From Escherichia phage UAB_Phi78: DNA of 43,984 nt. The DNA lies in the sequence record GU595417, one strand, 5' to 3'. Positions 521 to 31,474 of the stretch are shown in pieces. The notes beneath the pieces were generated by a model, which saw only the letters and a list, made by a program, of their open reading frames with translations, had not been told where the DNA came from and did no database searches. A program made the position numbers and the translations under genes. Within the stretch, counting starts at the first letter, position 1. Each line of letters starts with the position of its first letter.

Positions 521-536
521 GTCCAACACGTTAGAC
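521..536 (-). repeat. dispersed 16-bp near-palindromic element (GTCTAACGTGTTGGAC family), inverted copy
   Basis: gtccaacacgttagac is the exact reverse complement of the core found at 6253, 6424 and elsewhere. Confidence 0.7.
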
Positions 537-569
537 AACCTATCTTATTCTTAGTGAGGTAACTTAGTG

Positions 570-598
570 TTGACAAGGTAGGTTTAGTGTAATACTAT
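570..598 (+). promoter_or_regulatory. candidate host sigma70 early promoter
   Basis: TTGACA (570-575), 17-bp spacer, TACTAT (593-598), upstream of the first early ORF. Confidence 0.45.
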
Positions 599-726
599 GC
601 ATCACGTAGGCGGTGCTGAGGCACCTAGTAGCCAGCTAGTAAGGCATATGAAGTGACTAGTGTCTACATTGCTCTTTAATAATCTGGTTGTGTCTCGATA
701 GGTCAACTAACAAAAGGTGAACTGTC

Positions 727-1014
727 ATGGCTTTAATTAGTATGAAGAAGTTAAACACGGGAGAGGCTCTTAACCTATTTAACTCCGAGGAGTGGGATCT
801 ATCTAAAGGTGTATATACTTGCCCTTGCTTCAAACGAAATAAGGAAACAGGTGAAGTTTTGCGTTTGCCTGATAAGGTAAAAGTAGATTACTTTATACAT
901 ATGAAAGGTAATGCTTCTCTTAACAGATTGCACATACAAAAGAGCGCAGCTAAATCTATAGCATCTTTGTTGTGTAAACAATTAAAGGATATAAAAGAGA
1001 TACCAAACTATTAA
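727..1014 (+). CDS. hypothetical early protein (95 aa)
   Basis: ORF with RBS-like aaaggtga upstream; first gene after the candidate early promoter. Confidence 0.55.
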   Translation: MALISMKKLNTGEALNLFNSEEWDLSKGVYTCPCFKRNKETGEVLRLPDKVKVDYFIHMKGNASLNRLHIQKSAAKSIASLLCKQLKDIKEIPNY

Positions 1015-1126
1015 AGATATGGTCGGCGCAAGCTGGCCTATCAAGACACAACCTAGCTCTTTAACAATTTGCTTAGTGTAACCTATGTAAGCCGTGGTTA
1101 ATTACTTATTGAATGAGGAATTAACT

Positions 1127-1684: not shown

Positions 1685-1692
1685 ATTAGTTG

Positions 1693-1721
1693 TTGACAAC
1701 CACGGCTTACAAGGTTACATT
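1693..1721 (+). promoter_or_regulatory. candidate host sigma70 early promoter
   Basis: TTGACA (1693-1698), 17-bp spacer, TACATT (1716-1721). Confidence 0.4.
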
Positions 1722-2325: not shown

Positions 2326-2383
2326 GCTTAACAGGTCATCCTTGCGAGGGTGACCGATTAAACCAACTTAAAGAGGTGTAAAC

Positions 2384-2539
2384 ATGAAAACTTTGATTAA
2401 TGTGCTGGCTTGCTTCCTACTTGGTTCTATCATCTTGCTTGCTAGTGCTGGCGTTAAGATTGAATCTCATCATTATGACTTTGGAACTTGCAAACATTTG
2501 ATGGTAGGCGGCGCAATGTGGCATACATGGTATGAGTGA
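2384..2539 (+). CDS. small hydrophobic (membrane or secreted) protein (51 aa)
   Basis: AGAGGTG RBS; N-terminal hydrophobic stretch LACFLLGSIILLASAG. Confidence 0.4.
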   Translation: MKTLINVLACFLLGSIILLASAGVKIESHHYDFGTCKHLMVGGAMWHTWYE

Positions 2540-2601
2540 TTAGCCTATAGCTCATTTAGTGGGCTATGTGATATTCACTTAACTAACTAAGGTAAGCAAT
2601 T

Positions 2602-3477
2602 ATGACTACTGAAAACACTGTTGTATCCGTCCGTGAAGCTGCAACTGCTGAAATCAAGGTACACTTAGATACAATTGGCACCGCCTATCTGAAAGTTGGT
2701 TCCCTCTTGAATGAACTACGCGGTGACTTTGAGAATCAACGTGACTTTCTGTCTTATGTAGAAGCTGAATTCAGCATTAAGAAGGCACAATGCTATAACC
2801 TGATGAACGTAGCGCGTTGCTTTGACGGTGACGAGCGTTTCAAAGGCGTTGCCATGCGTGTCATGCTCGCCCTTATCCCGTTCGCTGATGATGGCGCAAT
2901 CATGGATAAGGCCGCCGGACTTGCCGCTAACGGCGAACTAGACACCAAGGCCGTGAATGCACTTGTATCGCCGTCTAAGCCTGTGAAGGCTGAAGCCAGC
3001 CAATCACAAGCCGAAGACACAAAAGCCGCTGAGAAGGCCGCTCCTGTAGAATCTGAGGCATTACAAAGCGTGCCGCATGAGGTAGCACCGGAAGGCGACG
3101 AATCCGCACCGTGGGAGGATGCGCCAGCGACTACCGAGGCCGCAGCGCCTAAGCTAGATAATGCTGAGAACACCGAGAACGCGGCTATGGCTAGCCTGCT
3201 GGCGCAAATCAAGACGCTGACCGAGCAACTGACCGCAGCAAACGACCGCATCGCAGAACTGACCAGCACACGCGAGACCAAGAAGGCAGCCGCGCCTATG
3301 TTGCCTCAATTCAAATCTAAGTGCTTCTATGCTCGCTTAGGTCTGAGCGCGGAGGAGGCGGAGAAGAAAACAGCAGTTAATAAGGCTAAACGTGAACTTG
3401 TTAAGCTTGGATACGGAGAAGGTCATGAAGCTTGGGATCTGATTCAAGAGGCTGTTACCACACTTACTGAGAAATAA
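2602..3477 (+). CDS. hypothetical early protein (291 aa) with low-complexity Ala/Glu/Lys-rich centre
   Basis: Long ORF with AGGTAAG RBS-like sequence. The antisense ORF 2793..3281 is explained by its biased composition. Confidence 0.65.
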   Translation: MTTENTVVSVREAATAEIKVHLDTIGTAYLKVGSLLNELRGDFENQRDFLSYVEAEFSIKKAQCYNLMNVARCFDGDERFKGVAMRVMLALIPFADDGAIMDKAAGLAANGELDTKAVNALVSPSKPVKAEASQSQAEDTKAAEKAAPVESEALQSVPHEVAPEGDESAPWEDAPATTEAAAPKLDNAENTENAAMASLLAQIKTLTEQLTAANDRIAELTSTRETKKAAAPMLPQFKSKCFYARLGLSAEEAEKKTAVNKAKRELVKLGYGEGHEAWDLIQEAVTTLTEK

Positions 3478-3551: not shown

Positions 3552-6176
3552 ATGCAAGACTTACACGCTATCCAGCTTCAATTAGAAGAAGAGATGTTTA
3601 ATGGTGGCATTCGTCGGTTCGAAGCAGACCAACAACGCCAGATTGCAGCAGGTAGCGAGAGTGACACGGCATGGAACCGCCGCCTGTTGTCCGAACTTAT
3701 TGCACCTATGGCTGAAGGTATTCAGGCTTATAAAGAGGAGTACGAAGGCAAGAAAGGTCGTGCTCCTCGCGCATTGGCATTCTTACAGTGTGTAGAAAAT
3801 GAAGTTGCAGCATACATCACTATGAAGGTAGTTATGGATATGCTGAATACTGATGTTACTCTTCAGGCTATTGCAATGAGCGTAGCGGAGCGCATCGAAG
3901 ACCAAGTGCGTTTTAGCAAGTTAGAAGGTCACGCCGCTAAATACTTTGAGAAGGTTAAGAAATCACTCAAGGCTAGCCGTACTAAGTCCTATCGTCACGC
4001 GCACAACGTAGCTGTAGTGGCTGAAAAGTCAGTAGCAGAAAAAGACGCTGACTTTGACCGTTGGGAGGCATGGCCCAAAGAGGCTCAATTGCAAATTGGT
4101 ACTACCTTGCTTGAAATCTTAGAGGGCAGCGTATTCTATAACGGTGAACCTGTATTTATGCGTGCTATGCGCACTTATGGCGGCAAGACTATTTACTACT
4201 TACAGACTTCTGAAAGTGTAGGTCAGTGGATTAGCGCGTTCAAAGAGCACGTAGCGCAATTAAGCCCAGCTTATGCTCCTTGCGTAGTCCCTCCTCGTCC
4301 TTGGAAAACCCCATTCAACGGTGGATTCCATACTGAGAAGGTAGCTAGTCGTATTCGCCTTGTAAAAGGCAACCGCGAACATGTGCGCAAGTTAACTCAA
4401 AAGCAGATGCCAAAGGTTTATAAGGCTATCAATGCCCTACAGAATACGCAATGGCAAATCAACAAGGACGTATTAGCAGTTATTGAGGAAGTGATTCGCT
4501 TAGACCTCGGTTATGGTGTGCCGTCCTTCAAGCCCCTGATTGACAAGGAGAACAAGCCAGCTAACCCTGTGCCTGTTGAATTCCAGCACCTGCGCGGTCG
4601 TGAACTGAAAGAAATGCTCTCCCCTGAGCAGTGGCAACAATTTATCAACTGGAAAGGTGAGTGTGCCCGCCTGTATACCGCAGAAACTAAGCGCGGTTCA
4701 AAGTCCGCCGCCGTTGTTCGCATGGTAGGGCAGGCCCGTAAATATAGCACCTTTGAATCCATTTACTTCGTGTACGCAATGGACAGCCGTTCCCGTGTAT
4801 ACGCGCAGTCTAGCACGCTCTCTCCGCAGTCTAACGACTTAGGCAAGGCATTACTCCGCTTTACCGAAGGACGCCCTGTAGACAGCGTAGAGGCGCTTAA
4901 ATGGTTCTGCGTGAATGGCGCTAACCTTTGGGGGTGGGACAAGAAAATTTTTGATGTACGCGTGTCTAACGTGTTGGACGAAGAGTTCCAGGATATGTGC
5001 CGCGACATCGCCGCAGACCCTCTCACGTTCACTCAATGGGCCAAAGCGGACGCGCCTTATGAATTCCTCGCATGGTGCTTTGAGTACGCTCAATACCTTG
5101 ACTTAGTAGAGGAAGGAAGGGCCGACGAGTTCCGCACACACCTGCCAGTACATCAGGACGGTTCCTGCTCCGGTATTCAGCACTATAGCGCTATGCTTCG
5201 CGATGAAGTAGGGGCCAAGGCTGTTAACCTGAAACCGTCCGATACGCCGCAGGATATTTACGGGGCGGTAGCGCAGGTTGTTATCAAGAAGAATGCGCTA
5301 TACATGGATGCAGACGATGCAACTACGTTTACTTCTGGTAGCGTAACACTGTCCGGTGCAGAACTGCGAGCAATGGCTAGCGCATGGGATAGCATTGGTA
5401 TTACCCGCAGCTTAACCAAAAAGCCAGTGATGACCTTGCCTTATGGTTCTACTCGCTTAACTTGCCGTGAATCTGTGATTGACTACATCGTAGACTTAGA
5501 GGAGAAAGAGGCGCAGAAGGCAGTAGCAGAAGGGCGGACGGCAAACAAGGTTCATCCGTTTGAAGACGACCGTCAAGACTACCTGACTCCGGGCGCAGCA
5601 TATAACTACATGACGGCATTAATCTGGCCTTCTATTTCTGAGGTAGTTAAGGCACCAATTGTAGCGATGAAGATGATACGCCAGCTTGCACGCTTTGCAG
5701 CGAAACGCAATGAAGGGCTGATGTACACCCTGCCTACTGGCTTCATCTTAGAACAGAAGATTATGGCAACCGAGATGTTACGTGTGCGTACCTGCCTGAT
5801 GGGTGATATCAAGATGTCGCTTCAGGTTGAAACGGATATAGTAGATGAAGCTGCTATGATGGGCGCAGCAGCACCTAACTTCGTACACGGTCATGATGCA
5901 AGTCACCTTATCCTTACCGTATGTGAATTGGTAGACAAAGGGGTAACTAGTATCGCGGTAATCCACGACTCTTTCGGCACTCATGCCGACAACACTCTCA
6001 CTCTTAGAGTGGCACTTAAAGGGCAGATGGTTGCAATGTATAGTGAAGGCCATGCACTTCAGAAATTACTGGACGAGCACGAAGATCGTTGGATGGTTGA
6101 TACTGGCATCGAAGTGCCTGAGCAAGGGGAGTTTGACCTTAACGAAATCATGGAATCTGAATACGTGTTTGCCTAA
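3552..6176 (+). CDS. single-subunit DNA-directed RNA polymerase (T7/SP6 type)
   Basis: 874 aa; T7-RNAP-like motifs [19 protein letters not shown] and HDSFGTH and a C-terminal ...YVFA end; 874 aa matches the known length of SP6 RNAP. Confidence 0.97.
4964..4979 (+). repeat. 16-bp near-palindromic element embedded in the RNAP coding sequence
   Basis: gtctaacgtgttggac, translated in frame as SNVLD. Confidence 0.7.
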
Positions 6177-6194
6177 TAGATTAATAAACATACA

Positions 6195-6223
6195 GGTCAG
6201 CCTTCGGGCTGGCCTTTTCTTTC
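6195..6223 (+). terminator. intrinsic terminator after the RNAP gene
   Basis: 8-bp GC-rich stem (ggtcagcc / ggctggcc) with a UUCG tetraloop, followed by ttttctttc. Confidence 0.7.
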
Positions 6224-6252: not shown

Positions 6253-6268
6253 GTCTAACGTGTTGGAC
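6253..6268 (+). repeat. 16-bp near-palindromic element
   Basis: gtctaacgtgttggac, 10 bp upstream of a promoter-like sequence. Confidence 0.7.
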
Positions 6269-6277: not shown

Positions 6278-6298
6278 ATTTAAGGGACACTCTAGGAC
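6278..6298 (+). promoter_or_regulatory. degenerate SP6-type promoter-like sequence
   Basis: atttaagggacactctaggac against the consensus atttaggtgacactatagaag. Confidence 0.35.
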
Positions 6299-6423
6299 TA
6301 ACCGTCGGAGACGGAAAGTAATAGGTAGTAATAGGAAGTAGTAGGTAAGTAAGGTAACTATAGGTTACTTAGGTTACTTCTTCCTATTACCTCCTTCTTA
6401 ATAGGGAGGGCAGACACTAGGTT

Positions 6424-6439
6424 GTCTAACGTGTTGGAC
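6424..6439 (+). repeat. 16-bp near-palindromic element
   Basis: gtctaacgtgttggac, 8 bp upstream of the promoter at 6447. Confidence 0.7.
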
Positions 6440-6446: not shown

Positions 6447-6467
6447 ATTTACGTGACACTATTGAAC
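6447..6467 (+). promoter_or_regulatory. SP6-type phage promoter (variant)
   Basis: atttacgtgacactattgaac; close to consensus, upstream of the HNH and primase genes. Confidence 0.55.
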
Positions 6468-6492
6468 AAGATTAAACTTTCAAGGAGGTAAC

Positions 6493-6903
6493 ATGCGTAA
6501 ATCATTAGCTCAAATGGTAGAGCAAGCAGGTTATACTATACATGCAGACGGTACTATCACAGGTAAGCGCGGAAATATCTTGAAGCCTTGGCTTCAGACT
6601 TCCGGCTATCAGGTTGTGAACATTGTGTTCAAGAAGGGAACAAGAACCACAACACTTGTGCATCGTATTATCGCAAGTAAATACTGCCCATGCTCAGATC
6701 AACTAGCTAATGATGTAAACCACAAGGACGGAGACAAGACCAATAACGTCTCCTCTAATCTGGAATGGATTACACGCAGACAGAACCGCAACCACTACCT
6801 TGGGTTTGAAGATTACATGACACTTACGGCAAACGATGCCCGTAGAAAGAACAATGAGCGTACTATCGCTCGTCGTAAATTACTTAAACAACTTAATAAG
6901 TGA
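6493..6903 (+). CDS. HNH homing endonuclease
   Basis: AAGGAGGT RBS; HNH-family motif VNHKDGDKTNN...NLEWIT; free-standing between the RNAP and primase genes. Confidence 0.8.
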   Translation: MRKSLAQMVEQAGYTIHADGTITGKRGNILKPWLQTSGYQVVNIVFKKGTRTTTLVHRIIASKYCPCSDQLANDVNHKDGDKTNNVSSNLEWITRRQNRNHYLGFEDYMTLTANDARRKNNERTIARRKLLKQLNK

Positions 6904-7040: not shown

Positions 7041-9020
7041 ATGGCGATTGTGAACAACATTCCTTGCCCTGAGTGCCAACGCAACGGACATGATAAATCG
7101 GGCAATCACCTCATGATATTTGAGGATGGCGCTGGTTACTGTAACCGTGGTCACTTCCATAATAGTGGTCGGCCCTACTACCACAAACCCGAAGGTGGCA
7201 TAGAAATCACTGAGCTTCCTATTACTGGCAACATTAAGTATACACCTTCACAGTTCCGTGAACTTGAAAAGGAAGGGAAGATAAGCGACCCTAAGCTGCG
7301 CGCCATTGCACTTGGCGGTATGCGTATGAAAGATCGTTGGGAGGTGATGAATGACGAAGAAAGGGCGGAGCAAGAAGCAGAATGGCAGCTTGACGTTGAG
7401 TGGTTCCTTGAACTTAAAAGGAAGAACCTTGTATCACGACACATTCGCGGAGACATTTGCGCCCTCTATGATGTCCGAGTCGGTCATGATGGAGAAGGCA
7501 AGGTTAACAGGCATTACTACCCTCGCTTCGAAGGTGGCAAACTTGTAGGCGCTAAGTGCCGGACGCTACCTAAAGACTTTAAGTTTGGACACCTAGGTAA
7601 ATTGTTCGGCAACCAAGACATGTTCGGCATGAACACAATGTCTAACGTGTTGGACAAGGGACGCCGTAAAGATACCCTGCTCATAGTAGGTGGTGAACTG
7701 GATGCCTTGGCCGCACAACAGATGCTTCTGGATTCTGCCAAAGGCACGAAGTGGGAAGGGCAACCCTATCATGTGTGGTCTATCAACAAGGGCGAGGCTT
7801 GCCTTGAAGAGATCGTGCAGAACCGTGAGCACATCTCACAATTCAAGAAGATTATGTGGGGCTTCGACGGCGATGAGGTAGGGCAGAAGCTGAACCAACA
7901 AGCGGCCCGCCTATTCCACGGTAAGTCTTATATCCTTGAGTACCCTGCTGGCTGCAAGGACGCTAACAAGGCGCTTATGGCTGGCAAATCTAAGGAGTTC
8001 GTCGATGCATGGTTCAATGCCAAGTCGTCAGATGAGGTCTTCGGTAGCCAGATTAAATCCATCGCATCTCAAAGGGATAAGCTGAAGGCTGCACGACCGG
8101 AACCGGGATTGTCTTGGCCTTGGCCTAAGCTGAACAAGATAACCCTTGGCATCCGTAAGCATCAGCTAATCATCGTCGGCGCTGGTTCTGGTGTAGGTAA
8201 GACGGAGTTCCTCCGCGAAGTAGTGAAGCATCTCATTGAAGAACACGGTGAATCTGTCGGTATTATCTCTACGGAAGACCCGATGGTTAAGGTCTCCCGC
8301 GCATTCATTGGTAAGTGGATAGATAAGCGTATTGAACTACCTCCAACCAATGACCCAAGGGAAGATGGCTACCGTGAGGTATTCGACTACACGGAGGAAG
8401 AGGCCAACGCTGCTATCGACTACGTTGCTGACACTGGTAAGCTGTTCGTGGCTGACCTTGAAGGTGACTATTCAATGGAGAAGGTAGAGCAGACTTGCCT
8501 TGAGTTCGAGGCAATGGGTATTTCCAACATCATCATTGATAACTTAACAGGAATTAAATTAGATGAACGAAATTTTGGTGGTAAAGTTGGTGCGCTTGAT
8601 GAGTGCGTCAAAAGAATCGGCACTATCAAAGACCGACATCCGGTTACTATCTTCCTTGTCTCGCACCTTACACGTCCTTCGGGGCAACGTACCTCACACG
8701 AAGAAGGTGGCGAGGTTATCCTTTCTGACTTCCGAGGCTCAGGAGCTATCGGATTCTGGGCTTCTTACGCCTTGGGGATTGAGCGTAATACAAGGGCTGA
8801 AACGCTTGATGAAAGGACTACCACGTACATCTCATGTGTCAAAGACCGAGACCAAGGCATCTACACTGGCACTAAGGTGATGCTTAAAGGCGATGTTAGT
8901 ACAGGTAGATTGATGGAACCACAAGCACGTACTAGGTCATTTGATACAGGCGCTCCAAAAGAGCAAGCTGTACCTGATGAATTAGGTGACACTATAGAAG
9001 ATAACACACAGGAGTTTTAA
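7041..9020 (+). CDS. DNA primase/helicase (T7 gp4-like)
   Basis: N-terminal zinc ribbon CPECQ...CNRGHFH, Walker A GAGSGVGKT, and an acidic C-terminal tail ending ...DNTQEF. The track ORF begins at an upstream GTG (7017); ATG 7041 with GGAGG upstream is preferred. Confidence 0.93.
   Translation: MAIVNNIPCPECQRNGHDKSGNHLMIFEDGAGYCNRGHFHNSGRPYYHKPEGGIEITELPITGNIKYTPSQFRELEKEGKISDPKLRAIALGGMRMKDRWEVMNDEERAEQEAEWQLDVEWFLELKRKNLVSRHIRGDICALYDVRVGHDGEGKVNRHYYPRFEGGKLVGAKCRTLPKDFKFGHLGKLFGNQDMFGMNTMSNVLDKGRRKDTLLIVGGELDALAAQQMLLDSAKGTKWEGQPYHVWSINKGEACLEEIVQNREHISQFKKIMWGFDGDEVGQKLNQQAARLFHGKSYILEYPAGCKDANKALMAGKSKEFVDAWFNAKSSDEVFGSQIKSIASQRDKLKAARPEPGLSWPWPKLNKITLGIRKHQLIIVGAGSGVGKTEFLREVVKHLIEEHGESVGIISTEDPMVKVSRAFIGKWIDKRIELPPTNDPREDGYREVFDYTEEEANAAIDYVADTGKLFVADLEGDYSMEKVEQTCLEFEAMGISNIIIDNLTGIKLDERNFGGKVGALDECVKRIGTIKDRHPVTIFLVSHLTRPSGQRTSHEEGGEVILSDFRGSGAIGFWASYALGIERNTRAETLDERTTTYISCVKDRDQGIYTGTKVMLKGDVSTGRLMEPQARTRSFDTGAPKEQAVPDELGDTIEDNTQEF
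7640..7655 (+). repeat. 16-bp near-palindromic element embedded in the primase coding sequence
   Basis: gtctaacgtgttggac, again translated as SNVLD. Confidence 0.7.
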
Positions 9021-9121
9021 ATGGATGAACTAGGCTTTTGGTTGTTCATGGTTGTATGTATCGTTATGATTAACCTAGACAAACTTGCCATGCTAATTAA
9101 GTAGTGTCCTTATCAGGGCTT

Positions 9122-9137
9122 GTCCAACATGTTGGAC
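9122..9137. repeat. 16-bp element, perfect-palindrome variant
   Basis: gtccaacatgttggac is its own reverse complement. Confidence 0.7.
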
Positions 9138-9176
9138 AGGCTCTTATTAAGCACATTAACTAACTGGAGATTAACT

Positions 9177-9869
9177 ATGAAGCTTAACTTAAAAGTAGGT
9201 GAACGTGTACGTAATATTCGTGTTGGATCTGCACGCGCAGGGTGGCAAGGTGCCGTCATCGTTGTAACAGAGGAGGAGTACGAAGTTCGATGGGATTGCG
9301 GAGAGAAGCAGGCTTATCTTCGTCGCTTCTCACACAAGAACCTTGAGCGCACACATGTAGCAAGCAAATGCACCTGTGTACACGATGAACTGTGTGACCG
9401 CTGTGCTCGTCAAGTCAGTAAGGCACTGACATTCATGGAGCGGTATGGTGCAGGTCACAAGACACTTGCGGAAGCAGCGTGGAATGTGCTCACGATCGAA
9501 CGCTCTAATGGTCGCAAGGTACTGAAGCGTGAGCGTCGTAATGTGATCACAGGCCAGACACAAGCAGAAATGCAAGCACAGTACGGGCCAGCAAAGGGCG
9601 GTATCATATTCAACACCCGTACATTAGGGCGCAGTACAGGTCAAGCCTTTCGCATCTTAGGCGAGGCCATGTGTAATCCTGGTATTGCTATACGTTATGA
9701 AGATGTAGACCATGCAATATCTGAAGGTACGAGTAATAGAGTTGTATTGAACAGACACTTTGAACAGGTGTTACGTGACACTATAGGTGAGCGCAAGGGC
9801 TTTACCTTTGAGCGCGGCCATGTTACATTTAACCCTATCGTTACGGAGGAAACCTATGTCACGCAATGA
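9177..9869 (+). CDS. hypothetical protein (230 aa)
   Basis: ATG 9177 with GGAG RBS; the track ORF starts upstream at 9120 inside the palindromic element, which is unlikely to be the true start. Confidence 0.6.
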   Translation: MKLNLKVGERVRNIRVGSARAGWQGAVIVVTEEEYEVRWDCGEKQAYLRRFSHKNLERTHVASKCTCVHDELCDRCARQVSKALTFMERYGAGHKTLAEAAWNVLTIERSNGRKVLKRERRNVITGQTQAEMQAQYGPAKGGIIFNTRTLGRSTGQAFRILGEAMCNPGIAIRYEDVDHAISEGTSNRVVLNRHFEQVLRDTIGERKGFTFERGHVTFNPIVTEETYVTQ

Positions 9870-10062
9870 CAGCAAGCACAGCCTGAAGTTCCTTGAGCAG
9901 CATGAAGACCTTGCAGCAAAGGTAACTAACCAAGCATTCCTGTTTGCACAACTCACACTGGCTGAAGCTAAGAAGAACAGCCTTACTCGTGAACAGATTA
10001 TTAAGGAAGGTTGCCGTGGTGCAACTCGTCGTATTAAGAACCACAGAAGTGGTGCTCGCTAG
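9856..10062 (+). CDS. hypothetical protein (68 aa)
   Basis: ATG 9856 with GGAGGAA RBS; start overlaps the end of the upstream gene. Confidence 0.5.
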   Translation: MSRNDSKHSLKFLEQHEDLAAKVTNQAFLFAQLTLAEAKKNSLTREQIIKEGCRGATRRIKNHRSGAR

Positions 10063-10079
10063 TTAATAAGTCGTGGCTT

Positions 10080-10095
10080 GTCTAACATGTTGGAC
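10080..10095 (+). repeat. 16-bp near-palindromic element
   Basis: gtctaacatgttggac. Confidence 0.7.
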
Positions 10096-10220
10096 AGGTC
10101 ACTATCATATTAATTGGAGGAATTACTGTATGATTAATTACGATTCTGATTGGGATTACGAAGATTCATTACAGCCTGAACCGGAGACACCAGACTACAA
10201 GTTTGAAACGGAGGCAATGT

Positions 10221-10439: not shown

Positions 10440-12972
10440 TTGGAAGAGGGAGGCGGAAGGTCGTATCCTAGTGATGGATGCGGAAGCTAAAGGTCTGCTT
10501 GATGCTATCCGCTACGGGCATCGTGAAGATGTGCATATCATTTGCTGCATGGACTTGCTTACTACCGAGGAGTTCCTCTTCTTTGACCCATATGAGATGC
10601 GTGACCCTGAAGCAAGAGAACGCCTGAAAGAGTGGGAAGGCCATCAAGATGGTGACTTGGTTGATGGTGTTAACTTCCTGAAGTACTGTGAAGCTATCGT
10701 GTCACAGAACTTCTTAGGATATGACGGCCTGCTCTTTGAGAAAGCATTCCCTAATATCTGGAAAGGCTTTAACTACACAGAGAAGCGCGGCAAGGGCAGG
10801 CTCCGTGCCGACCTGTGTCCTGTGCGGGTCATGGACACACTGGTGATGAGCCGCCTGTTAAACCCCGATAGACGCCTCCCTCCGCAAGCATACGCCAAAG
10901 GTATGGGTAACGTCGCCCCTCACTCTATTGAGGCGCATGGTATCCGTATCGGTCGCTATAAGCCTGAGAACGAGGACTGGTCTAAGCTGACAGACCACAT
11001 GGTTCATCGTGTACGTGAGGACGTGGCGATCGGTCGTGACCTGTTCCTGTGGCTATATAATGGCGAGTGGATGGAGCACAAGCGGCGTGGTGTCAATCCA
11101 CGGACTGGCCTTGGCATTGAGACGGCCTTTCACATGGAGTCTATTGTAGCACTGGAGATGTCCCGTCAAGCGGAGCGTGGCTTCCGGTTGGATATAGACA
11201 AGGCACTGGCACGATGCCAGGAACTTGACCAGAAGATCGACGAGACGGTTGCAGCATTCCGACCTCACATGCCAATGCGTATCAAGTCTAAACCCTTCAA
11301 ACCTCAAGAGAAGCAGGAGCAGGTAGATGCAGCAAACTCATTTAGTTTACAGAATCAGATTGGTGTTACGCTTGGAGCCGATGCTTTCATTCATGCCGAG
11401 CGGCGCTCCGATAGGAAGACTGTATGGTCAGTCACTACTAAGTCAGGTGATTGGTCGGCTACTGTCAAGAAAGACTTCCCTCACATCCGAGGAAACATCA
11501 ATGATACTCCGAGCATTAAACACATCGGGCCATATACACCTGTCACCTTCGAAGATATCCCGCTTGGCAACCGAGATACCGTTAAGCAGGTTCTGTATGA
11601 CTTTGGGTGGCGGGGTGTTGAGTTCAACGACACTGAACAATCTTATCTGGACGAGCATGGAGTGTTGCCTAAACCTTGGAGTGGAAAGATAAATGAGAAG
11701 TCCCTTACTTTATGGCAGGAAAGGGCTGCACGTGAAGGTAAGTCAGTCCCTGATTGGTGCTTGGGTATCGCTGCATGGTACATACTCGTTTCCCGTCGTG
11801 GTCAGATCCTCAACCGTGGTGATGTTGAAACCTTCGATGCAACGGGGCGTTGGCCCTCGCAAGCTGGTGTACGAAAGTGTCGCGGCCTTATACCTGTAGC
11901 CTTTAATAAGGAGCTAGGTATCAATGCACAGACGTACTACGAAACGTATGGCTACTGGCCTACGTCCGATAAGGATGACGGAGAGTGGCGTGTTCCCGCT
12001 GTTGCTATTTCTATTGGCACTTCTACGTTCCGTATGCGTCACAGGAATGTGGTTAACATCCCCGCTCGTGGCCTTTACCCTCTTCGTGATTTATTCATAG
12101 CTGGTAAAGGTAAGATGATTCTTGGTTGTGACGGTGCAGGTCTGGAGTTGCGTGTACTCTCGCACTTCATGAACGACCCTGAGTACCAAGAGATCGTCCT
12201 GCATGGTGACATTCATACACATAACCAGCTCAAGGCTGGCCTGCCTAAGCGTGATATGGCGAAGACCTTTATCTACGCATTCCTGTATGGCTCAGGTATT
12301 GCCAACCTCGCTGCGGTATGTGGCGTAACTGAAGATGAGATGAAGGAAGTTGTTGCACGCTTTGAGATAGAGCTACCTTCATTGGCAAGACTTCGTGAGA
12401 ATGTTATTGCGGCAGGTAATCGATATGGATACCTCCAGGCACCTGACGGTCATTGGGGCCGCATCCGTATGAGCGGTGGTGTACTTAAAGAGCACACCAT
12501 GCTTAACGTATTACTCCAGATGACAGGCTCATTGTGCATGAAGTATGCATTGGTTAAGGCCTTTGCAGTCATGCGCCGTGAAGGTGTGGCACTAGATGAC
12601 ATGGGAAATCCGTGTGGCGTGGCTAACGTACACGATGAAATCCAGATGGAAGTACCAGAAGAGGAGGTGTTGTACCTTGACTATGAATTGCCTTTCACGC
12701 TGGAAGGTTTCGAAAATGAGAAGCAAGCCATCAAAGCTGTGTTCGACCCTGAAGAGAAACGTGTGCATGTGGACTCAGAGGGTCGTATGTGGTCTGCTGC
12801 TAACTTGGTTGAAGTTGATGCTGCTGCTGGTGTGCTGCGTTGTCAGCGTCGCTACCACAGGGCTGGTCATATTATCGCTGACGCCATGACTTGGGCTGGC
12901 AAGTATCTTAACATGCGCTGCCCTATGGCTGGCGAATATAAAATAGGTGCAAGTTGGAAGGAGACACACTAA
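10426..12972 (+). CDS. DNA polymerase (family A, T7 gp5-like)
   Basis: Pol I motif B KTFIYAFLYG, motif C VHDE, and an N-terminal exonuclease-like region. ATG 10426 with GGAG RBS is preferred over the track start at 10393. Confidence 0.93.
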   Translation: MKSIDWKREAEGRILVMDAEAKGLLDAIRYGHREDVHIICCMDLLTTEEFLFFDPYEMRDPEARERLKEWEGHQDGDLVDGVNFLKYCEAIVSQNFLGYDGLLFEKAFPNIWKGFNYTEKRGKGRLRADLCPVRVMDTLVMSRLLNPDRRLPPQAYAKGMGNVAPHSIEAHGIRIGRYKPENEDWSKLTDHMVHRVREDVAIGRDLFLWLYNGEWMEHKRRGVNPRTGLGIETAFHMESIVALEMSRQAERGFRLDIDKALARCQELDQKIDETVAAFRPHMPMRIKSKPFKPQEKQEQVDAANSFSLQNQIGVTLGADAFIHAERRSDRKTVWSVTTKSGDWSATVKKDFPHIRGNINDTPSIKHIGPYTPVTFEDIPLGNRDTVKQVLYDFGWRGVEFNDTEQSYLDEHGVLPKPWSGKINEKSLTLWQERAAREGKSVPDWCLGIAAWYILVSRRGQILNRGDVETFDATGRWPSQAGVRKCRGLIPVAFNKELGINAQTYYETYGYWPTSDKDDGEWRVPAVAISIGTSTFRMRHRNVVNIPARGLYPLRDLFIAGKGKMILGCDGAGLELRVLSHFMNDPEYQEIVLHGDIHTHNQLKAGLPKRDMAKTFIYAFLYGSGIANLAAVCGVTEDEMKEVVARFEIELPSLARLRENVIAAGNRYGYLQAPDGHWGRIRMSGGVLKEHTMLNVLLQMTGSLCMKYALVKAFAVMRREGVALDDMGNPCGVANVHDEIQMEVPEEEVLYLDYELPFTLEGFENEKQAIKAVFDPEEKRVHVDSEGRMWSAANLVEVDAAAGVLRCQRRYHRAGHIIADAMTWAGKYLNMRCPMAGEYKIGASWKETH

Positions 12973-13641: not shown

Positions 13642-14451
13642 ATGGCTCGTAATGAATTTAACTTTGGTGCTGAAATTGCCACTTCAACTGGTGGGGTATT
13701 CAAGAACCCAGATGTTGGCGACCATGAAGCTGTTATCTCAGGCATCATTCATGTTGGTTCCTTTCAAGATATATTCAAGAAAGGTAACACTACTGAAGTG
13801 AAGAAGCCAGCTAACTTTGTACTGGTCAAGGTTGTGCTGATGGGCGATGAAGACAAGAACGATGATGACTCTCGCATGGAGCAGTGGATGGCTGTGCCGC
13901 TGAAGTCAGGCGACAAGGCTACGCTTACCAAGTTCCTGAATGCAGTTGACCCGCGTGAGCAGCTTGGAGGTTTCGATGACTTCATTGGAGAATGCATGAC
14001 CGTAAGCATGGTTGGCGATGACAAAGGTGGTAAGAATGAAGATGGCACCTTCAAGTATGTTAACTGGAAGGGATTCGGCGGTATGCCGGATAAGCTGAAG
14101 AAGCTGGTACTGGCTCAGGTTGAAGAGGAAGGTCTGACCATGACAGGTCACATCACCTTCGACAAGCTGACCAAAGACATCATCGACTCTATCCCTGCAC
14201 ACCTTGTCCGTCAGTACCTGCTAAATGAGACACCTCGTGGCAAGAACCTGTCAGTAGCTGGCTCTCACGTAGAGACTATCATTGCTGAAGCTCGTGCCGC
14301 TGACCCTGAGTGGAAGAAGGCCAAGAAGAAAGACAATGACGCTACACCGGAAGACCGTAAGCCGCTAGACACCGGCGCTGCTGTTCCGCAGGAAGTGCCG
14401 GAAGCGCAGAATGCCCCGGCACCTGCTATGGATGAAGATGCTGAGTATTAA
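13642..14451 (+). CDS. hypothetical protein with acidic C-terminal tail (candidate ssDNA-binding protein)
   Basis: AAGGAGG RBS; 269 aa; C-terminus ...PAMDEDAEY is acidic with an aromatic last residue, as in T7 gp2.5. The functional assignment is inference only. Confidence 0.55.
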   Translation: MARNEFNFGAEIATSTGGVFKNPDVGDHEAVISGIIHVGSFQDIFKKGNTTEVKKPANFVLVKVVLMGDEDKNDDDSRMEQWMAVPLKSGDKATLTKFLNAVDPREQLGGFDDFIGECMTVSMVGDDKGGKNEDGTFKYVNWKGFGGMPDKLKKLVLAQVEEEGLTMTGHITFDKLTKDIIDSIPAHLVRQYLLNETPRGKNLSVAGSHVETIIAEARAADPEWKKAKKKDNDATPEDRKPLDTGAAVPQEVPEAQNAPAPAMDEDAEY

Positions 14452-14687: not shown

Positions 14688-14703
14688 GTCTAACGCGTTG
14701 GAC
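14688..14703 (+). repeat. 16-bp near-palindromic element
   Basis: gtctaacgcgttggac, 16 bp upstream of the promoter at 14720. Confidence 0.7.
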
Positions 14704-14792: not shown

Positions 14793-15161
14793 ATGTTCAC
14801 TATCGAAACTATCGTAAACCGTGTTGTTAAAGGCGCTACCCTGGTATCCGTTGAGTCTTTCATTATCGTCGATGAAGCTGGCTCGCTGGTAGCTGGTACT
14901 AAGGCTTATGATACCCGTGAAGAAGCTCAGGCTAAGATTGACAGCATGGGTAACTTTGCTGCTGGTCTGGAGTTCGCACGTGCTTGCTTCCCGGAGCAGG
15001 CTGACAAAGCTCAGATTGGTAAGGCTAACATCGTAGCTGAATATCTGGACTGGATTGAAGCAGGTAAGCCTGTGAAAGAAGCTAAGTCTGCTGAAGTTGT
15101 TGAAGCTGCTGCCGAAGAAGCTCCGGTTGCTGCTCAGGTGAGCGAAGAAGAAGAGTTCTAA
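14793..15161 (+). CDS. hypothetical protein with acidic C-terminal tail (122 aa)
   Basis: GAAGGAGAA RBS; ends ...SEEEEF; followed directly by a strong terminator. Confidence 0.65.
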   Translation: MFTIETIVNRVVKGATLVSVESFIIVDEAGSLVAGTKAYDTREEAQAKIDSMGNFAAGLEFARACFPEQADKAQIGKANIVAEYLDWIEAGKPVKEAKSAEVVEAAAEEAPVAAQVSEEEEF

Positions 15162-17886: not shown

Positions 17887-17971
17887 AAAGGGCTAGGTAA
17901 GACTTTACTTGCTGGCGTATCCAAACGGTATTTCACTAGACCTTGATTGTATAGTGAATGGAGGAATTAAT

Positions 17972-18421
17972 ATGGCTAAATTTAAAGTAGGTGATGAAGT
18001 TAAGCGTAAAGAAGATGACTATAGTGAAGCATGGCTTGATGGATGTAGAGAGGGTAGATTCAGTCCAAACGATGTCATGGTTGTGGAAAAGGTATCAGTA
18101 TCTGGTTCTTTGATTACACTCCGAGGTGTGACTGGGGCTTGGGTTGCTGAGAGTTTTGAACTGTTTCATAAGAAGGAAGACTCTTGTGACATGGTAATGA
18201 ACCCTAAACACTATGAATTCTTCGAAGGAGTAGAGGCAATCACAATCATTGCCCGTAGCATGACCGAGAAGCAATTCGCTGGTTACTGTATGGGTAACGC
18301 TTTGAAGTATCGTCTACGTGCAGGTAAGAAGCTCAATACTGAGGAAGATCTGAAGAAAGCAGACTACTACAAAGACCTGTTCCAGAAGCATCGCCATGAA
18401 TGTATCGATGAGGATCTCTAA
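17972..18421 (+). CDS. hypothetical protein (149 aa)
   Basis: ATG 17972 with GGAGGAA RBS; the track ORF starts further upstream at 17909. Confidence 0.55.
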   Translation: MAKFKVGDEVKRKEDDYSEAWLDGCREGRFSPNDVMVVEKVSVSGSLITLRGVTGAWVAESFELFHKKEDSCDMVMNPKHYEFFEGVEAITIIARSMTEKQFAGYCMGNALKYRLRAGKKLNTEEDLKKADYYKDLFQKHRHECIDEDL

Positions 18422-27785: not shown

Positions 27786-28505
27786 ATGGCAATAGGTACT
27801 GCCCTTACAGCAGGCTTGTCCAGTGTAGCAGGTAGTGCTGCATCGGGTGGCTTCCTGTCTTCGTTGGGTGGTGCTATTGGTGCAGAAGGGATAATGGGTT
27901 CTGCCATGAGTTTCTTAGGTGGAACCACTGGAGGGTTCTCTAATGCTGGTCTCCTGTCGGCAGGTATGCAAATGCTTAACCCGATAGGGGACTACTTCAC
28001 GCAGAAAGAAACAGCGAAGGCGATGAAGAAGGCACAAGAGGAGCAATGGCGTCAGCAGTTGATAGCCACAAGAGAGGCTTATGCTTCCGTGGCTAATGCT
28101 GAAAGGTCGGCCTCTAAACAATATCATTCTGAACTAATAGACAATCAGGTATCCTTATTACAGCAAAGAGCACAAGTTGCCTTACTTGCAGGTGCGAGCG
28201 GCACAGGTGGTAACTCTATCACTTCTATGCTGAATGACCTGACAGGTGAAGCTGGTAGGAACCAAGCCACCATTATTGACAACTATGAAACACAGCAGAT
28301 TAACTTTGCTAACCAACTCAAGTCTATCCAGAAGGGTGGTCAGATGATGATGCGTTCATTTGAGAAGCCGTCTGCATTCAGCGCACTAGCCAAAGGCATG
28401 TCTGGTGTAGGCGAGGCTTACCTGTCTGGTCATCAGAAAGGTACAGCACTTAGCAAGGCTTGGTCTGATTCTAGGACATATTCATCAGGAACAAGAGGAG
28501 TTTAA
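27786..28505 (+). CDS. internal virion protein
   Basis: 239 aa, Gly/Ala/Ser-rich N-terminus; AAGAGGAGAG RBS. Confidence 0.7.
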   Translation: MAIGTALTAGLSSVAGSAASGGFLSSLGGAIGAEGIMGSAMSFLGGTTGGFSNAGLLSAGMQMLNPIGDYFTQKETAKAMKKAQEEQWRQQLIATREAYASVANAERSASKQYHSELIDNQVSLLQQRAQVALLAGASGTGGNSITSMLNDLTGEAGRNQATIIDNYETQQINFANQLKSIQKGGQMMMRSFEKPSAFSALAKGMSGVGEAYLSGHQKGTALSKAWSDSRTYSSGTRGV

Positions 28506-31442
28506 ATGGCAATTGAACGTCAAGCTGTACAGGGCTTACGCCGAGTGCAGTCTACTGGTGGGCCAAGTGCTGCTAGTTTTGCGACTCGTCAGGTTGGGGT
28601 GCAAGAGACTAGTGCATCTGGTAGCCGCTTTCTTGAAGACCTTGTAAATGCTGCTGGCAGTTTGGCGACTGTCACTACTTCTATCCTGAACCAAAGGGTG
28701 GAAGATGATAAGGTACGACAATACAACCGGGCGTTAACTGGCCTGATGCCAACTGAAGATGCAACGGTTGGTGGCGCTCGCGCACACATGCTTGTCAGCT
28801 TACAAAATGACATCATCGCGCAAACCATGCAACTGTCCGATGATGCACAGCGTTTTGATGGTGATGACAGCCAATGGGAAGATCACGTTATCAACGCACG
28901 CATGGCTGTTCAAGACCGCCTGTGGGATACCTACCCTGAACTGCGTGGAGATAAGGAGTCCATGCGGGTAGTAACTAACGCCTTCATGGAGCAGCAACCT
29001 AAGATCTTTGCAGCAAGAGAGACTGCCAAGTTGAAGCAGGAAGCTGAATCTCGTATCAAGTCTATGGAATCTCGCATTCTGTTGGCTACACGTGATGTTC
29101 CTGGAGAAGCTATGGGTGATGCCTTGAATCAGTTGCAGAAAGAAGCTATGGCTATGCAAATCACCAAGCAGGAGTTTGATGCGCTGGTTTCTCAGTTGGC
29201 ATCTAATCGTGCAGCTATTGGTGATGATTCTATGATTCAAGGAACCAAGGCTCTCAAGGATGAGAATGGAGTGTCACTTTATGACCGAGTAGGTCAGTTG
29301 CAGACAGGTGAGATTCAGGCCAACCGAACATGGGCGGCGCAGAACCAAGTGGCGCTCTTTGAGAAGAAGGATGCTGCAATCAAAGCCTTTGAGGCTGGAC
29401 AGCTTAACCGTGAGCAGCTACTTCAGGTTATGCAGAACCATAATGAAATCTCAGGGGGCACTGCTTGGTCTGATAGCGAGATCAAATCTTTATTTGATAG
29501 GCAAGCTAAGGTTCGTGCTGAGTCTGCCAAACTAGAAGACTTGGTGGCCCGTGGTGAACATGGCTCTCCTTTAGGCTTGCAAGACATCAGCAAGGAAGAC
29601 CGCAAGGCGTATGCTGGTGCATTGGTTGATGCCTACACCAAGTTGGCCAATGACGAGATAACTCGTACCGGAGCTACTGGTGAAGAAGCTGAGGCCATCC
29701 GTGGACGCTATGAGCAGATGCGATACGCCAAGCTGGGGCAGCAGTTGATTGAAGACCCCATCATCAAAGAACGATATGGCTCGCTAATGCAACTATCTTC
29801 TGCCAACCTGAAAGATATGAAGGTTGAACCTGAAGCATTACAGACTATTATGCGAGCACGTGATTCTATCCCGGAAGATGCACGCCGGGCGGTGATGGGT
29901 GACAAGGAGTATGCCTTTGCGGAGAACTATGACTTGGCTACACGCATGGGTTATACGCCGGGGCAGGCCATAGAGTTTGCACAGAATGCATCGCGTGGCG
30001 ATAAGCTTCCCGGTTCTGTTATGAAAGAATTGAATGATGAAGTCGATGGTGTAGTTAGCGATGTGGCTAGTGGTAGCTGGCTTACGCGTGGCGACAACAT
30101 GAGCGACATGGGACGTGATCTTATGTTAGAAGAGGCAAACCAGATTGCCCGCTCTATGAAGGTTGCAGGTCATAACAATGACACCATTAAGCGACATCTT
30201 AAATCTTTCCTACAGAATCAGTACACTCAACTATCTGAAGGTTTCTTCACTCAAGGTGTTCTGGTCAAAGGTGATGTGAGAACGCTAGGTGACACTATAG
30301 GCACCAACCAAGGAGACGTACCTACGGTATTACGTCAGTACCTTGACAACCATAAGCAAGCCTTGCTGGATGCATCTGGCGGTATGGAAGAAGGAGACTT
30401 GTACTTTGATGTAGACTCTAAGCGCGGTATGTTTACAATACGTGCTGGTTCTGGTCGTGTACCAGTTACTCCAGCTATGCCTTTGTCTGAAATCAAAGGA
30501 CAGGACTTACTGAAGGAGCACTACGAGAAGGCAGTGAAAGAGCGCGATGAGGCTAAGAAGAACTTTGAAGCTAATCAGATGCGTATGTGGGGTGCTGGCG
30601 GGTATCAAGCTCCTGCACCAGAAAAGACTACAGCTAAGACTGTAGGTTCCCGTGGTATCGCTGACTTCCTCATGTCACCAGCCTTTGCATCAGGTGAGAA
30701 TCTACCTTCCAACTTTGAATTCAACTACAAGAGGAATAACATGGACTTCTACAATTATGTAGCTAAGACCGAGAACGGGGCCAACGTAGGGTTCGACCGA
30801 GTAGCTGGTGTATACACTCCGTACAAAGATGCACACGGTCAATCTGTGGGCTACGGTCACTTCCTCACGGAGGAGGAGAAGAAGAATGGATACATCACTA
30901 TTGGCGAAGATAAAGTACCATTTGCACCGGGACAATCTCAGTTAACACCTGAGCGTGCAATGCGCCTGCTTGAGCAGGACATGAAGAGTCACGTACCTAG
31001 CACAAAGGATTGGGCTGTACCTTTTGATGCAATGCATCCGGGAGTGCAACGTGGCCTCATGGACTTGTCTTATAACTTAGGCAAGGCTGGCATCAAGAAT
31101 GCGCCAAAGGCTTATGCAGCATTCAAGGCTGGCAAGTTCACTGATGGGTTTATCGAGATGCTGTCTACTGCATCTACTGAAGGTAAGCGCAGTTCAGGTC
31201 TGCTAGTTCGCAGGGCAGAAGCCTATAACCTTGCACAAAGCGGAGGTGCTGTTCCTAAGATTAGCGAAGTGGAGACGAGGGAAGATGGCTCCATGTACGT
31301 TAGGTTCTCAGGTAACATGTCAGAAGCATTTGTGAGCAAGTCTATCCTTGGCAAGATAGGCAAAGATGGGTGGATGGAAGTCTACCAGCCTAAAGCAGGA
31401 GCACTTGCAAGCGGCACCAAAGTGGGTCGCATTAAACTGTAG
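28506..31442 (+). CDS. internal virion protein with C-terminal lysozyme-like domain
   Basis: 978 aa; YKDAHGQSVGYGHFLT matches the T4-lysozyme-family pattern YKD..G....G.GH.LT. Confidence 0.8.
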   Translation: MAIERQAVQGLRRVQSTGGPSAASFATRQVGVQETSASGSRFLEDLVNAAGSLATVTTSILNQRVEDDKVRQYNRALTGLMPTEDATVGGARAHMLVSLQNDIIAQTMQLSDDAQRFDGDDSQWEDHVINARMAVQDRLWDTYPELRGDKESMRVVTNAFMEQQPKIFAARETAKLKQEAESRIKSMESRILLATRDVPGEAMGDALNQLQKEAMAMQITKQEFDALVSQLASNRAAIGDDSMIQGTKALKDENGVSLYDRVGQLQTGEIQANRTWAAQNQVALFEKKDAAIKAFEAGQLNREQLLQVMQNHNEISGGTAWSDSEIKSLFDRQAKVRAESAKLEDLVARGEHGSPLGLQDISKEDRKAYAGALVDAYTKLANDEITRTGATGEEAEAIRGRYEQMRYAKLGQQLIEDPIIKERYGSLMQLSSANLKDMKVEPEALQTIMRARDSIPEDARRAVMGDKEYAFAENYDLATRMGYTPGQAIEFAQNASRGDKLPGSVMKELNDEVDGVVSDVASGSWLTRGDNMSDMGRDLMLEEANQIARSMKVAGHNNDTIKRHLKSFLQNQYTQLSEGFFTQGVLVKGDVRTLGDTIGTNQGDVPTVLRQYLDNHKQALLDASGGMEEGDLYFDVDSKRGMFTIRAGSGRVPVTPAMPLSEIKGQDLLKEHYEKAVKERDEAKKNFEANQMRMWGAGGYQAPAPEKTTAKTVGSRGIADFLMSPAFASGENLPSNFEFNYKRNNMDFYNYVAKTENGANVGFDRVAGVYTPYKDAHGQSVGYGHFLTEEEKKNGYITIGEDKVPFAPGQSQLTPERAMRLLEQDMKSHVPSTKDWAVPFDAMHPGVQRGLMDLSYNLGKAGIKNAPKAYAAFKAGKFTDGFIEMLSTASTEGKRSSGLLVRRAEAYNLAQSGGAVPKISEVETREDGSMYVRFSGNMSEAFVSKSILGKIGKDGWMEVYQPKAGALASGTKVGRIKL
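30282..30303 (+). promoter_or_regulatory. internal SP6-type promoter-like sequence inside the internal virion protein gene
   Basis: acgctaggtgacactataggc matches the consensus core TAGGTGACACTATAG exactly, with a divergent upstream end. Confidence 0.5.
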
Positions 31443-31458
31443 TGTCATACTCAAGGTT

Positions 31459-31474
31459 GTCTAACACGTTGGAC
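31459..31474 (+). repeat. 16-bp near-palindromic element
   Basis: gtctaacacgttggac in the 66-bp gap between the two large internal virion protein genes. Confidence 0.7.

Follow-up and report, generated by a model that had tools for sequence, protein, structure and literature searches.

Escherichia phage UAB_Phi78 (sequence record GU595417) carries nine dispersed copies of a 16-bp near-palindrome, here called the box, and the question that they raise is what reads them and in what form, as duplex DNA or as RNA. We analyzed the whole stretch of 43,984 bp (referred to below as the window), starting from a preliminary description, made from the sequence alone, that had offered both readings: a DNA site for a dimeric protein or an RNA stem of 6 bp with a tetraloop. 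The boxes are real, conserved, and non-random. On balance, we favor the explanation that they would be duplex-DNA operators and that a dimer of the SP6 gene 6 homolog, an early phage protein, would read them.

Nine copies of the box in the window

All nine copies of GTCYAACRYGTTRGAC that had been described were found, beginning at 521, 4964, 6253, 6424, 7640, 9122, 10080, 14688, and 31459; the copy at 521-536 is indeed inverted, with its consensus on the − strand, and that at 9122-9137 is a perfect palindrome. The chance level was taken from shuffles that preserved dinucleotides. With the degenerate pattern GTCYAACNNGTTRGAC and one mismatch allowed, 9 matches were observed versus 0.03 expected, and with the 16-mer consensus and three mismatches allowed, 9 were observed versus 0.24 expected, a count that no shuffle reached, so that the copy number is as far beyond chance as had been claimed. 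The account of the variation between copies needed amending: the central dinucleotide does vary, always as a purine-pyrimidine pair, but two mirrored arm positions vary rather than one, namely, position 4 and its mirror, position 13 (Y/R). The degeneracy of the box is thus itself mirrored (Y4/R13 and R8/Y9). T...A flanks are present on seven of the nine boxes, and TGTC...GACA is frequent. Read as a protein-binding site, each box would consist of two inverted 8-bp half-sites, GTCYAACR.

The box had not been recognized as a named regulatory site, and we found no name for it in the literature searched either. Box variants used as exact strings returned nothing relevant there, and keyword searches found no match for SP6-group palindromes or RNase III sites; a description in the two SP6 genome papers that lay outside that scope (Dobbins 2004 and Scholl 2004) is possible.

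The box family extends across the SP6 supergroup

By its sequence, the window belongs to Zindervirus (SP6-like). Over the 8 kb compared, its identity to Salmonella phage pSL2 is 98.7%; its identity to SP6 is ~91%, and IMG/VR contig 2595698432_000001 is the same sequence. From its open reading frames and annotated relatives, we placed the RNA polymerase gene at 3552-6176, the primase/helicase gene at 7041-9020, the end of the DNA polymerase gene at 12972, and the junction of the two large internal virion protein genes at 31442/31509.

The preliminary description had proposed looking for the motif in relatives, and the motif or a lineage version of it proved to be present at equivalent places in SP6, pSL2, and Klebsiella, Proteus, Pectobacterium, Erwinia, Vibrio, Pseudomonas, Aeromonas, and Marinomonas phages. 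All nine positions are retained in SP6 and pSL2, which share a tenth box, absent from the window, within the nucleotide kinase gene (SP6 17752, pSL2 18354). The window's own nucleotide kinase (17909-18421) is a divergent allele, 59 to 62% identical to those of SP6 and pSL2 and ~60% identical to T7 gp1.7, and such an allele, lacking the internal box, is a sign of mosaic exchange.

A de novo palindrome search of complete genomes showed that every SP6-supergroup genome examined has 4 to 11 copies of its own uniform version of the box at equivalent places. Boxes recur at the left end, downstream of the RNA polymerase terminator, both within and downstream of the primase gene, ahead of the DNA polymerase block, downstream of a small conserved gene, and at the junction of the genes for the internal virion proteins. 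Five versions are 16-mers: GTCYAAC-RY-GTTGGAC in Salmonella, Klebsiella (VR702, Kp7), Proteus PmP19, and Pectobacterium PP1 phages; GTCTCAC-RY-GTGAGAC in K1E, K1-5, and Erwinia phiEa1H; GTCTAAC-RY-GTTAGAC in Vibrio BD1; GTCTACA-NN-TGTAGAC in three IMG/VR contigs; and GTTCGAGATCTCGAAC, with GTTCGAG arms, in Marinomonas CPG1g. Two others are 17-mers, GTCCAACA-N-TGTTGGAC in the Proteus Acadevirus phages and GTCTCACA-N-TGTGAGAC in Pseudomonas Njord, Vibrio VEN, and Aeromonas MJG. Even between genera with RNA polymerases only ~41% identical, the box positions are orthologous. No member of the palindrome family was found in the controls T7, K30, and Ralstonia RSB2. When IMG/VR was scanned with the perfect palindrome GTCCAACNNGTTGGAC, the multicopy contigs were all 44- to 45-kb SP6-like genomes with one exception, an unrelated locus in which the matches fall in collagen-like repeat coding sequence, and single matches occurred at about the chance rate by our estimate.

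The form of the boxes calls for a phage-encoded reader

Conservation of the box is two-fold symmetric, degenerate positions and center included, and within the 17-mer lineages variation is confined to the base on the dyad. Such symmetry is not expected of a hairpin loop, and it supports a duplex-DNA site for a dimer over an RNA tip. In K1E, K1-5, phiEa1H, and Njord, seven boxes are hybrids of one GTCTCAC and one GTCTAAC arm, so that positions 5 and 12 cannot pair, yet either arm is a legal half-site; the half-sites appear, from these sequences, to be read independently. Between SP6 and K1E/K1-5, all copies have changed on both arms (A5 to C and T12 to G), a concerted two-arm change that independent structural drift would not give. 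Even the copy in the primase gene has followed: in K1E and K1-5, its codon AAC (Asn) has become CAC (His), and on the other arm TTA is kept at a place where a perfect arm would make an in-frame TGA. The type of box is independent of the host. Together, the symmetry, the unpaired arms, the concerted change, the coding copies, and the independence from the host call for a sequence-specific reader encoded by the phage.

The SP6 gene 6 homolog is the candidate reader

All open reading frames of the window were compared by BLAST with 15 relatives, and proteins present in every box-bearing genome and not in T7 were retained. The conserved proteins of unknown function that passed this filter were three, of 291, 269, and 122 amino acids. 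The largest, the homolog of SP6 gene 6 (2602-3477, + strand), is encoded directly upstream of the RNA polymerase gene. It was present in all 19 of the box-bearing GenBank genomes examined and was not found in the box-less controls T7, K30, and RSB2; the 212 phage records in which it occurs nearly coincide with those that carry the SP6-type primase. In databases it is called “hypothetical” or bears clearly wrong names (“endolysin,” “TonB”).

The 269- and 122-amino-acid proteins (the products of 13642-14451 and 14793-15161) were set aside as readers; they have no specificity site, and their acidic tails, each ending in an aromatic residue (..DEDAEY and ..EEEEF), resemble those of T7 gp2.5 and gp4. 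These acidic, aromatic C termini make them likelier to be replisome proteins, and, by analogy, they may be a protein like a single-stranded-DNA-binding protein and another protein that interacts with DNA polymerase. The primase was rejected as well; SP6 primase recognizes GCA, which is absent from the box.

An AlphaFold2 model of the gene 6 homolog, built from an 11-sequence alignment, predicts a helical N-terminal domain (residues 5 to 125; predicted local distance difference test score [pLDDT], 85 to 96), a disordered linker (126 to 188), a long helix (188 to 230), and a compact, J-like C-terminal domain (235 to 290) from which the HPD motif of J-domain cochaperones is absent. Within the N-terminal domain, helices 46-57 and 61-74 form a predicted helix-turn-helix (pLDDT, >85), with residue 66 in the second helix. 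A Foldseek search of the PDB returned the DNA-binding proteins SopB, Noc, VirB, and Spo0J, all with E above 1, and the N-terminal domain of the model can be said to resemble ParB/KorB DNA-binding domains, with modest fold scores. Against BFVD, the matches were viral DUF3102 proteins (E from 7e-4 to 0.02), and one member of the reader family gave a faint Pfam DUF3102 match (E, 0.13, below the Pfam threshold). We know of no established function or DNA site for DUF3102, and the resemblance, which comes from the predicted structure and its viral BFVD matches, is a family lead that brings no mechanism with it. Searches of Pfam, PDB sequences, and 5.8 billion proteins gave no annotation, PHROGs gave a family of unknown function only, and relaxing E to 10 brought up no ParB-type Pfam match. 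The predicted helix-turn-helix is preceded by a single long helix (residues 10 to 40), and the N-terminal ParB/Srx CTP-binding domain is missing. Since this CTPase domain and any sequence-level similarity are both absent, we do not count the candidate reader as a member of the ParB family.

A residue of the putative recognition helix co-varies with the box

We scanned 22 conserved proteins for alignment columns that are shared by K1E, K1-5, phiEa1H, and Njord and are different in all CAAC-type phages. In the gene 6 homolog, a single column emerged, that of residue 66. Most of the other columns flagged were in the two large internal virion proteins and were discarded: in K1E and K1-5, these proteins are alleles only ~40% identical to the others, with 318 and 483 lineage-specific positions, and at that level of identity chance coincidences are expected in such a scan. 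The genes for these two proteins (K1E 29620-35941 and K1-5 28049-34247, orthologous to window 28506-35321) encode products 38 to 43% identical to those of SP6 and the window, compared with 80 to 90% for most other proteins, and this points to a swapped ejectosome module in K1E and K1-5.

The helix motif around residue 66 was then compared with the dominant palindrome in 36 IMG/VR loci with 10-kb flanks and four more GenBank genomes, giving a sample of ~50 genomes and loci, some of them duplicated between GenBank and IMG/VR and three of the loci with too little flank to score. Residues 62 to 68 read AQCYNLM, AQCYHLM, or ASVYNYL where the box arm is GTCCAAC or GTCTAAC; AQ[C/T/A]YKLM or SQAYKLI where it is GTCTCAC; AWAYRLM where it is GTCTAGT; AYVYRLM where it is GTCTACA; and the diverged SSVSEWC where it is GTTCGAG. 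Asn or His at residue 66 thus accompanies A at box position 5, Lys accompanies C, and Arg is found in the GTCTAGT and GTCTACA genomes, and among the ~50 genomes and loci there was no exception to the match between helix motif and box arm. Asn-adenine contacts are common in protein-DNA complexes, as are those that Lys or Arg makes to guanine in a C:G pair.

In a neighbor-joining tree of the RNA polymerases, Vectrevirus (Lys/GTCTCAC) is nested in the Asn/GTCYAAC clade as sister to Klebsiella VR702, and that clade excludes Erwinia phiEa1H (Lys), Vibrio BD1 (Asn), and the Colwellvirinae (Lys). This topology implies at least two or three independent switches between Asn and Lys, each matched by a switch between A and C at box position 5. 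The K1E reader is 72% identical to that of the window and 47% identical to that of phiEa1H; the K1E protein is thus an ordinary ortholog, and its switch at residue 66 is a point change rather than a gene swap.

Boxes lie at module junctions and beside promoters

Three of the nine boxes precede phage promoters, one precedes an early promoter, two lie in genes, and three lie in hairpins. Box 1 (GTCCAACACGTTAGAC; 521-536, − strand consensus) precedes the first sigma-70-like early promoter (570-598, + strand; TTGACA, a 17-nt spacer, and TACTAT), from which the reader operon is presumably transcribed, and is separated from that promoter's −35 hexamer by 34 bp. It has orthologs at the left ends of SP6, K1E, K1-5, VR702, PP1, PmP19, Kp7, phiEa1H, the Acadevirus phages, and Njord, and across the clade the left-end box lies 12 to 50 bp upstream of the first sigma-70-like early promoter. 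Box 3 (6253-6268) stands between the terminator that follows the RNA polymerase gene (6194-6215) and a phage RNA polymerase promoter with a weak match (6278-6300, + strand), which begins 9 bp after the box; the order terminator-box-promoter is kept clade-wide. Box 4 (6424-6439) is 7 bp upstream of the phage promoter at 6447-6469 (+ strand). Box 8 (14688-14703) begins right after a stop codon and is 16 bp upstream of a strong phage promoter (14720-14742, + strand; 1 mismatch to the SP6 consensus), an arrangement also present in SP6, VR702, K1E, K1-5, PP1, the Acadevirus phages, and BD1. The three promoter-proximal copies that had been pointed out are therefore all beside SP6-type promoters, at gaps of 9, 7, and 16 bp. 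The broader statement that boxes are often upstream of phage promoters is true of only three of the nine copies, and ~9 of the window's ~12 phage promoters have no box, but where the arrangement occurs it is kept across the whole clade: two box-then-promoter arrangements, one after the RNA polymerase terminator and the other after the small conserved gene, recur clade-wide with gaps of 0 to 16 bp.

The two intragenic boxes differ in their constancy. Box 2 (4964-4979), in frame within the RNA polymerase gene, where it encodes S-N-V-L-D, is evolutionarily labile: it has decayed in SP6, with 3 mismatches, and the same place is occupied in pSL2, PP1, and phiEa1H. Box 5 (7640-7655), in frame within the primase/helicase gene and encoding M-S-N-V-L-D, is conserved at the nucleotide level. 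Apart from the Acadevirus phages and Erwinia phiEa1H, every member of the Molineuxvirinae examined has it, as does Vibrio BD1, and it is nearly invariant while the synonymous sites beside it diverge.

From these positions and the predicted structure, we infer that the reader binds the boxes as a dimer with a regulatory outcome. Made from the early, host-transcribed operon, it would read the half-sites through its helix-turn-helix domain, with the long helix suited to dimerization, and would occupy the boxes at module junctions: at the early promoter, at three phage promoters, within the genes for RNA polymerase and primase, and at three joints between genes. Its most likely role would be to modulate or insulate transcription at the switch from early to middle genes, in the manner of KorB. 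At the three intergenic joints, the palindrome would be built into the tips of RNase III hairpins, the same DNA having a function at the RNA level as well. The boxes most probably form an operator system, for which a reader is newly proposed here, and at three sites this system is superimposed on RNase III hairpins.

Two features are left unexplained by a simple operator model: boxes 3 and 4 bracket an origin-like array of 10-bp repeats, and two boxes are inside genes. Both would be accommodated if the same reader served replication or genome organization instead, by marking an origin, loading a helicase, or bridging the incoming genome as ParB or Noc might. The bracketed array is just after the RNA polymerase gene, at what we take to be the position of the T7 primary origin; boxes in genes, far from promoters, fit a structural role; and the fold relatives of the reader include partition and nucleoid occlusion proteins. 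We nonetheless consider this explanation unlikely. The reader lacks the CTPase and spreading domains of ParB as well as a ParA partner, partition would be of no use to a virulent phage, and the tight, conserved spacing of boxes to phage and early promoters is more typical of operators.

The bracketed stretch itself (6278-6423) looks like a replication origin at the T7 primary origin position. It contains the weak phage promoter, a small hairpin, CCGTCGGAGACGG (6302-6314), and three to four copies of a 10-bp periodic repeat, AGTAATAGGT (6317-6346), with an inverted copy at 6375-6395. The order promoter-hairpin-repeat also occurs in SP6, VR702, K1E, PP1, PmP19, and MidiMira.

Three boxes cap RNA hairpins

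Folding of the flanks showed that boxes 6 (9122-9137), 7 (10080-10095), and 9 (31459-31474) are the tips of imperfect hairpins of ~60 nt on the + strand. These hairpins span 9100-9161 (after the primase/helicase stop codon; fold z-score, −5.0), 10058-10119 (with its 3′ arm abutting the Shine-Dalgarno sequence of the next gene; −4.0), and 31438-31497 (−3.4). Each has an upper stem of 12 to 13 bp, an asymmetric internal loop, and a lower stem of 9 to 10 bp, and each occupies an intergenic site on the coding strand, where it follows a stop codon and precedes the next ribosome-binding site. Most of the Molineuxvirinae relatives examined are predicted to have this architecture at the orthologous sites. 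Compensatory double changes affect 9 of the 24 pairs of the 10080 hairpin (9 phages) and 6 of the 22 pairs of the 31459 hairpin, and almost no pair is broken in either; moreover, G·U pairs make the fold specific to the coding strand, which identifies it as an RNA structure. At 521, 4964, 6253, 7640, and 14688, folding revealed no extended stem, and at 6424 the stem is partly extended.

When ten T7 RNase III sites were folded, they were found to have the common flanks ACUCAAGG...CCUUUAUGA, and the flanks of the 31459 hairpin are identical to those of T7 R0.3, R0.5, R1.1, and R18.5. A covariance model was built from seven T7 RNase III sites alone, and the whole window was scanned with it without filters. 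The top match was 31438-31497 (E, 2e-8; 45.5 bits), with box 9 on its tip. Matches without a box followed at 2532-2583 (+ strand; E, 0.0015), just upstream of the candidate reader gene, and at 42100-42147 (+ strand; E, 0.04), and those to the box 6 and box 7 hairpins were not significant with this model (9100-9161, E, 1.4; 10058-10119, E, 2). By sequence and structure, then, we assign the 31459 hairpin to the T7-type RNase III sites, and by homology RNase III would cleave it after 31483. The other two share its architecture and have a conserved fold (9122) or covariation (10080), and they are too diverged for the T7 model. All three box-capped hairpins are like the T7 sites in being intergenic and ahead of a ribosome-binding site, but T7 tips are varied and share no palindrome, and six of the nine boxes are outside such hairpins. 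SP6 (at 12233), K1E, and VR702 have a further box-less RNase III-type site, which a regular-expression search did not find in the window.

These hairpins are the strength of the view that the box acts only in RNA, as the apical stem-loop of processing or stability hairpins read either by host RNase III or by an RNA-binding protein of the phage, which might be the gene 6 homolog itself, with the copies outside hairpins decayed or incidental. Besides the covariation, the T7-type flanks, and the coding-strand specificity given by G·U pairs, seven of the eight asymmetric Zindervirus boxes are in the U·G-compatible orientation on the coding strand. This orientation bias is weak, however (binomial P of ~0.07; 4 to 3 outside Zindervirus), and a non-template C-to-T bias could explain it. 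Six of the nine copies have no extended stem, and one of these is upstream of the early promoters; at the sites compared, long hairpins are lacking around the boxes of Vibrio BD1, Erwinia phiEa1H, and Pseudomonas Njord; and T7-type sites occur without a box, both in T7 and at 2532-2583 in the window. Nor would an RNA tip account for loop positions that are two-fold symmetric and arms that tolerate non-pairing, and a host enzyme cannot explain a genus-specific, concerted change between E. coli and Salmonella phages. We regard a purely RNA-level role as improbable. Of the two readings in the preliminary description, each is partly right, for different subsets of the copies. The protein site gains comparative support from the two-fold symmetry, the non-pairing half-sites, the concerted change, and the co-varying helix residue; the RNA structure stands for three copies, where, however, the box is the tip of a much longer hairpin and not a free 6-bp stem.

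The boxes were rejected as intrinsic terminators, rho-independent or phage class I; no box is among the terminator-like sites, and what comes after the boxes is A-rich or mixed sequence rather than a U-run. In the record of Proteus phage Pm5460, the ortholog of the post-primase box hairpin (9147-9189) is labeled a rho-independent terminator. This is probably an error, since the hairpin is not followed by a U-run; box hairpins are called terminators in at least one public record, where the label should be corrected.

A last pair of explanations dispenses with a phage-encoded regulator. Selfish or recombinogenic palindromes (like repetitive extragenic palindromic sequences or miniature inverted-repeat transposable elements, targets of homing endonucleases, or joints for module shuffling) would need no regulatory reader, and boxes at module boundaries in mosaic genomes, with an HNH endonuclease gene that SP6 lacks just after box 4, would suit them. 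We give this very little credence: the positions are orthologous across genera, in-frame copies in essential genes co-evolve with the coding sequence, no transposase gene or target-site duplications were seen, and the uniformity within each genome tracks the helix residue. The boxes are not mobile palindromes. Binding by a host transcription factor or nucleoid protein, which the palindromic 16-mer format typical of bacterial transcription factors might suggest, is highly improbable for a box whose type is independent of the host.

Relation to known operator systems

A close parallel to the proposed operators is KorB, the ParB-family global repressor of the IncP plasmid RK2, and its operator, OB. 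KorB operators of 16 bp lie 4 to 10 bp, or 45 to >1,000 bp, upstream of promoters (PMC11790492). The boxes are alike in having gaps to promoters of 0 to 16 bp clade-wide and in being palindromes dispersed in multiple copies per replicon (9 in 44 kb here and 4 to 11 in relatives). They differ in that the candidate reader lacks the ParB/Srx CTPase domain, is accompanied by neither KorA nor IncC, shows no detectable similarity to KorB in sequence, has a J-like C-terminal domain, and belongs to a virulent phage whose box promoters serve a single-subunit phage RNA polymerase.

With ParB-parS and with Noc and its binding site, NBS, the boxes share the 16-bp palindrome in several copies and the structural matches of the reader (the DNA-binding domains of Spo0J, ParB, SopB, and Noc), and in that family, too, a few helix residues appear to set the palindrome that is read. 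The parS half-site is TGTTTCAC, to which the extended K-type box half-site, TGTCTCAC, is similar, but the spacing between half-sites is 0 bp in parS versus 2 to 3 bp in boxes aligned that way. In contrast to ParB and Noc, the candidate reader lacks the spreading domain and the CTPase, and no role in segregation or division is expected in a lytic phage.

Going beyond the window, we suggest tentatively that the SP6 supergroup (Molineuxvirinae, Colwellvirinae, and Gajwadongvirus) might possess an unrecognized global circuit, acting on DNA, in which an early ParB/KorB-like reader of ~10 boxes, using a simple and naturally reprogrammed code of one or two helix residues, gates the promoters of the phage RNA polymerase and, at boxes on the tips of RNase III hairpins, maybe couples occupancy of the template to RNA processing. 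Gene control in T7-type phages is usually accounted for by promoter strength, timing coupled to entry through RNA polymerase, lysozyme feedback, and RNase III processing, and to our knowledge these mechanisms have not included a dispersed operator system. If the boxes are operators for the gene 6 homolog, they add a regulatory layer in a large, therapeutically used group (SP6, K1E, K1-5, and many Klebsiella, Proteus, Erwinia, and Vibrio phages) and give a function to a conserved “hypothetical” early gene. The residue-to-base pairings (Asn or His with A, Lys with C, and Arg in the GTCTAGT and GTCTACA genomes) would constitute a small DNA-recognition code, and orthogonal repressor-operator pairs beside SP6-type promoters, useful in synthetic biology, might be drawn from it.

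Neighboring features

The HNH endonuclease gene mentioned above (6493-6903; Pfam HNH_3, E = 4.5e-8) lies downstream of the 6447 promoter and ahead of the primase region. Because pSL2 has this gene and SP6 does not, it is probably a homing endonuclease insertion. At the left end of Marinomonas phage CPG1g, positions 234-352 hold three tandem copies, ~50 bp apart, of a different palindrome, TGTTATGTTATAACA, and this array adjoins that phage's own box at 361.

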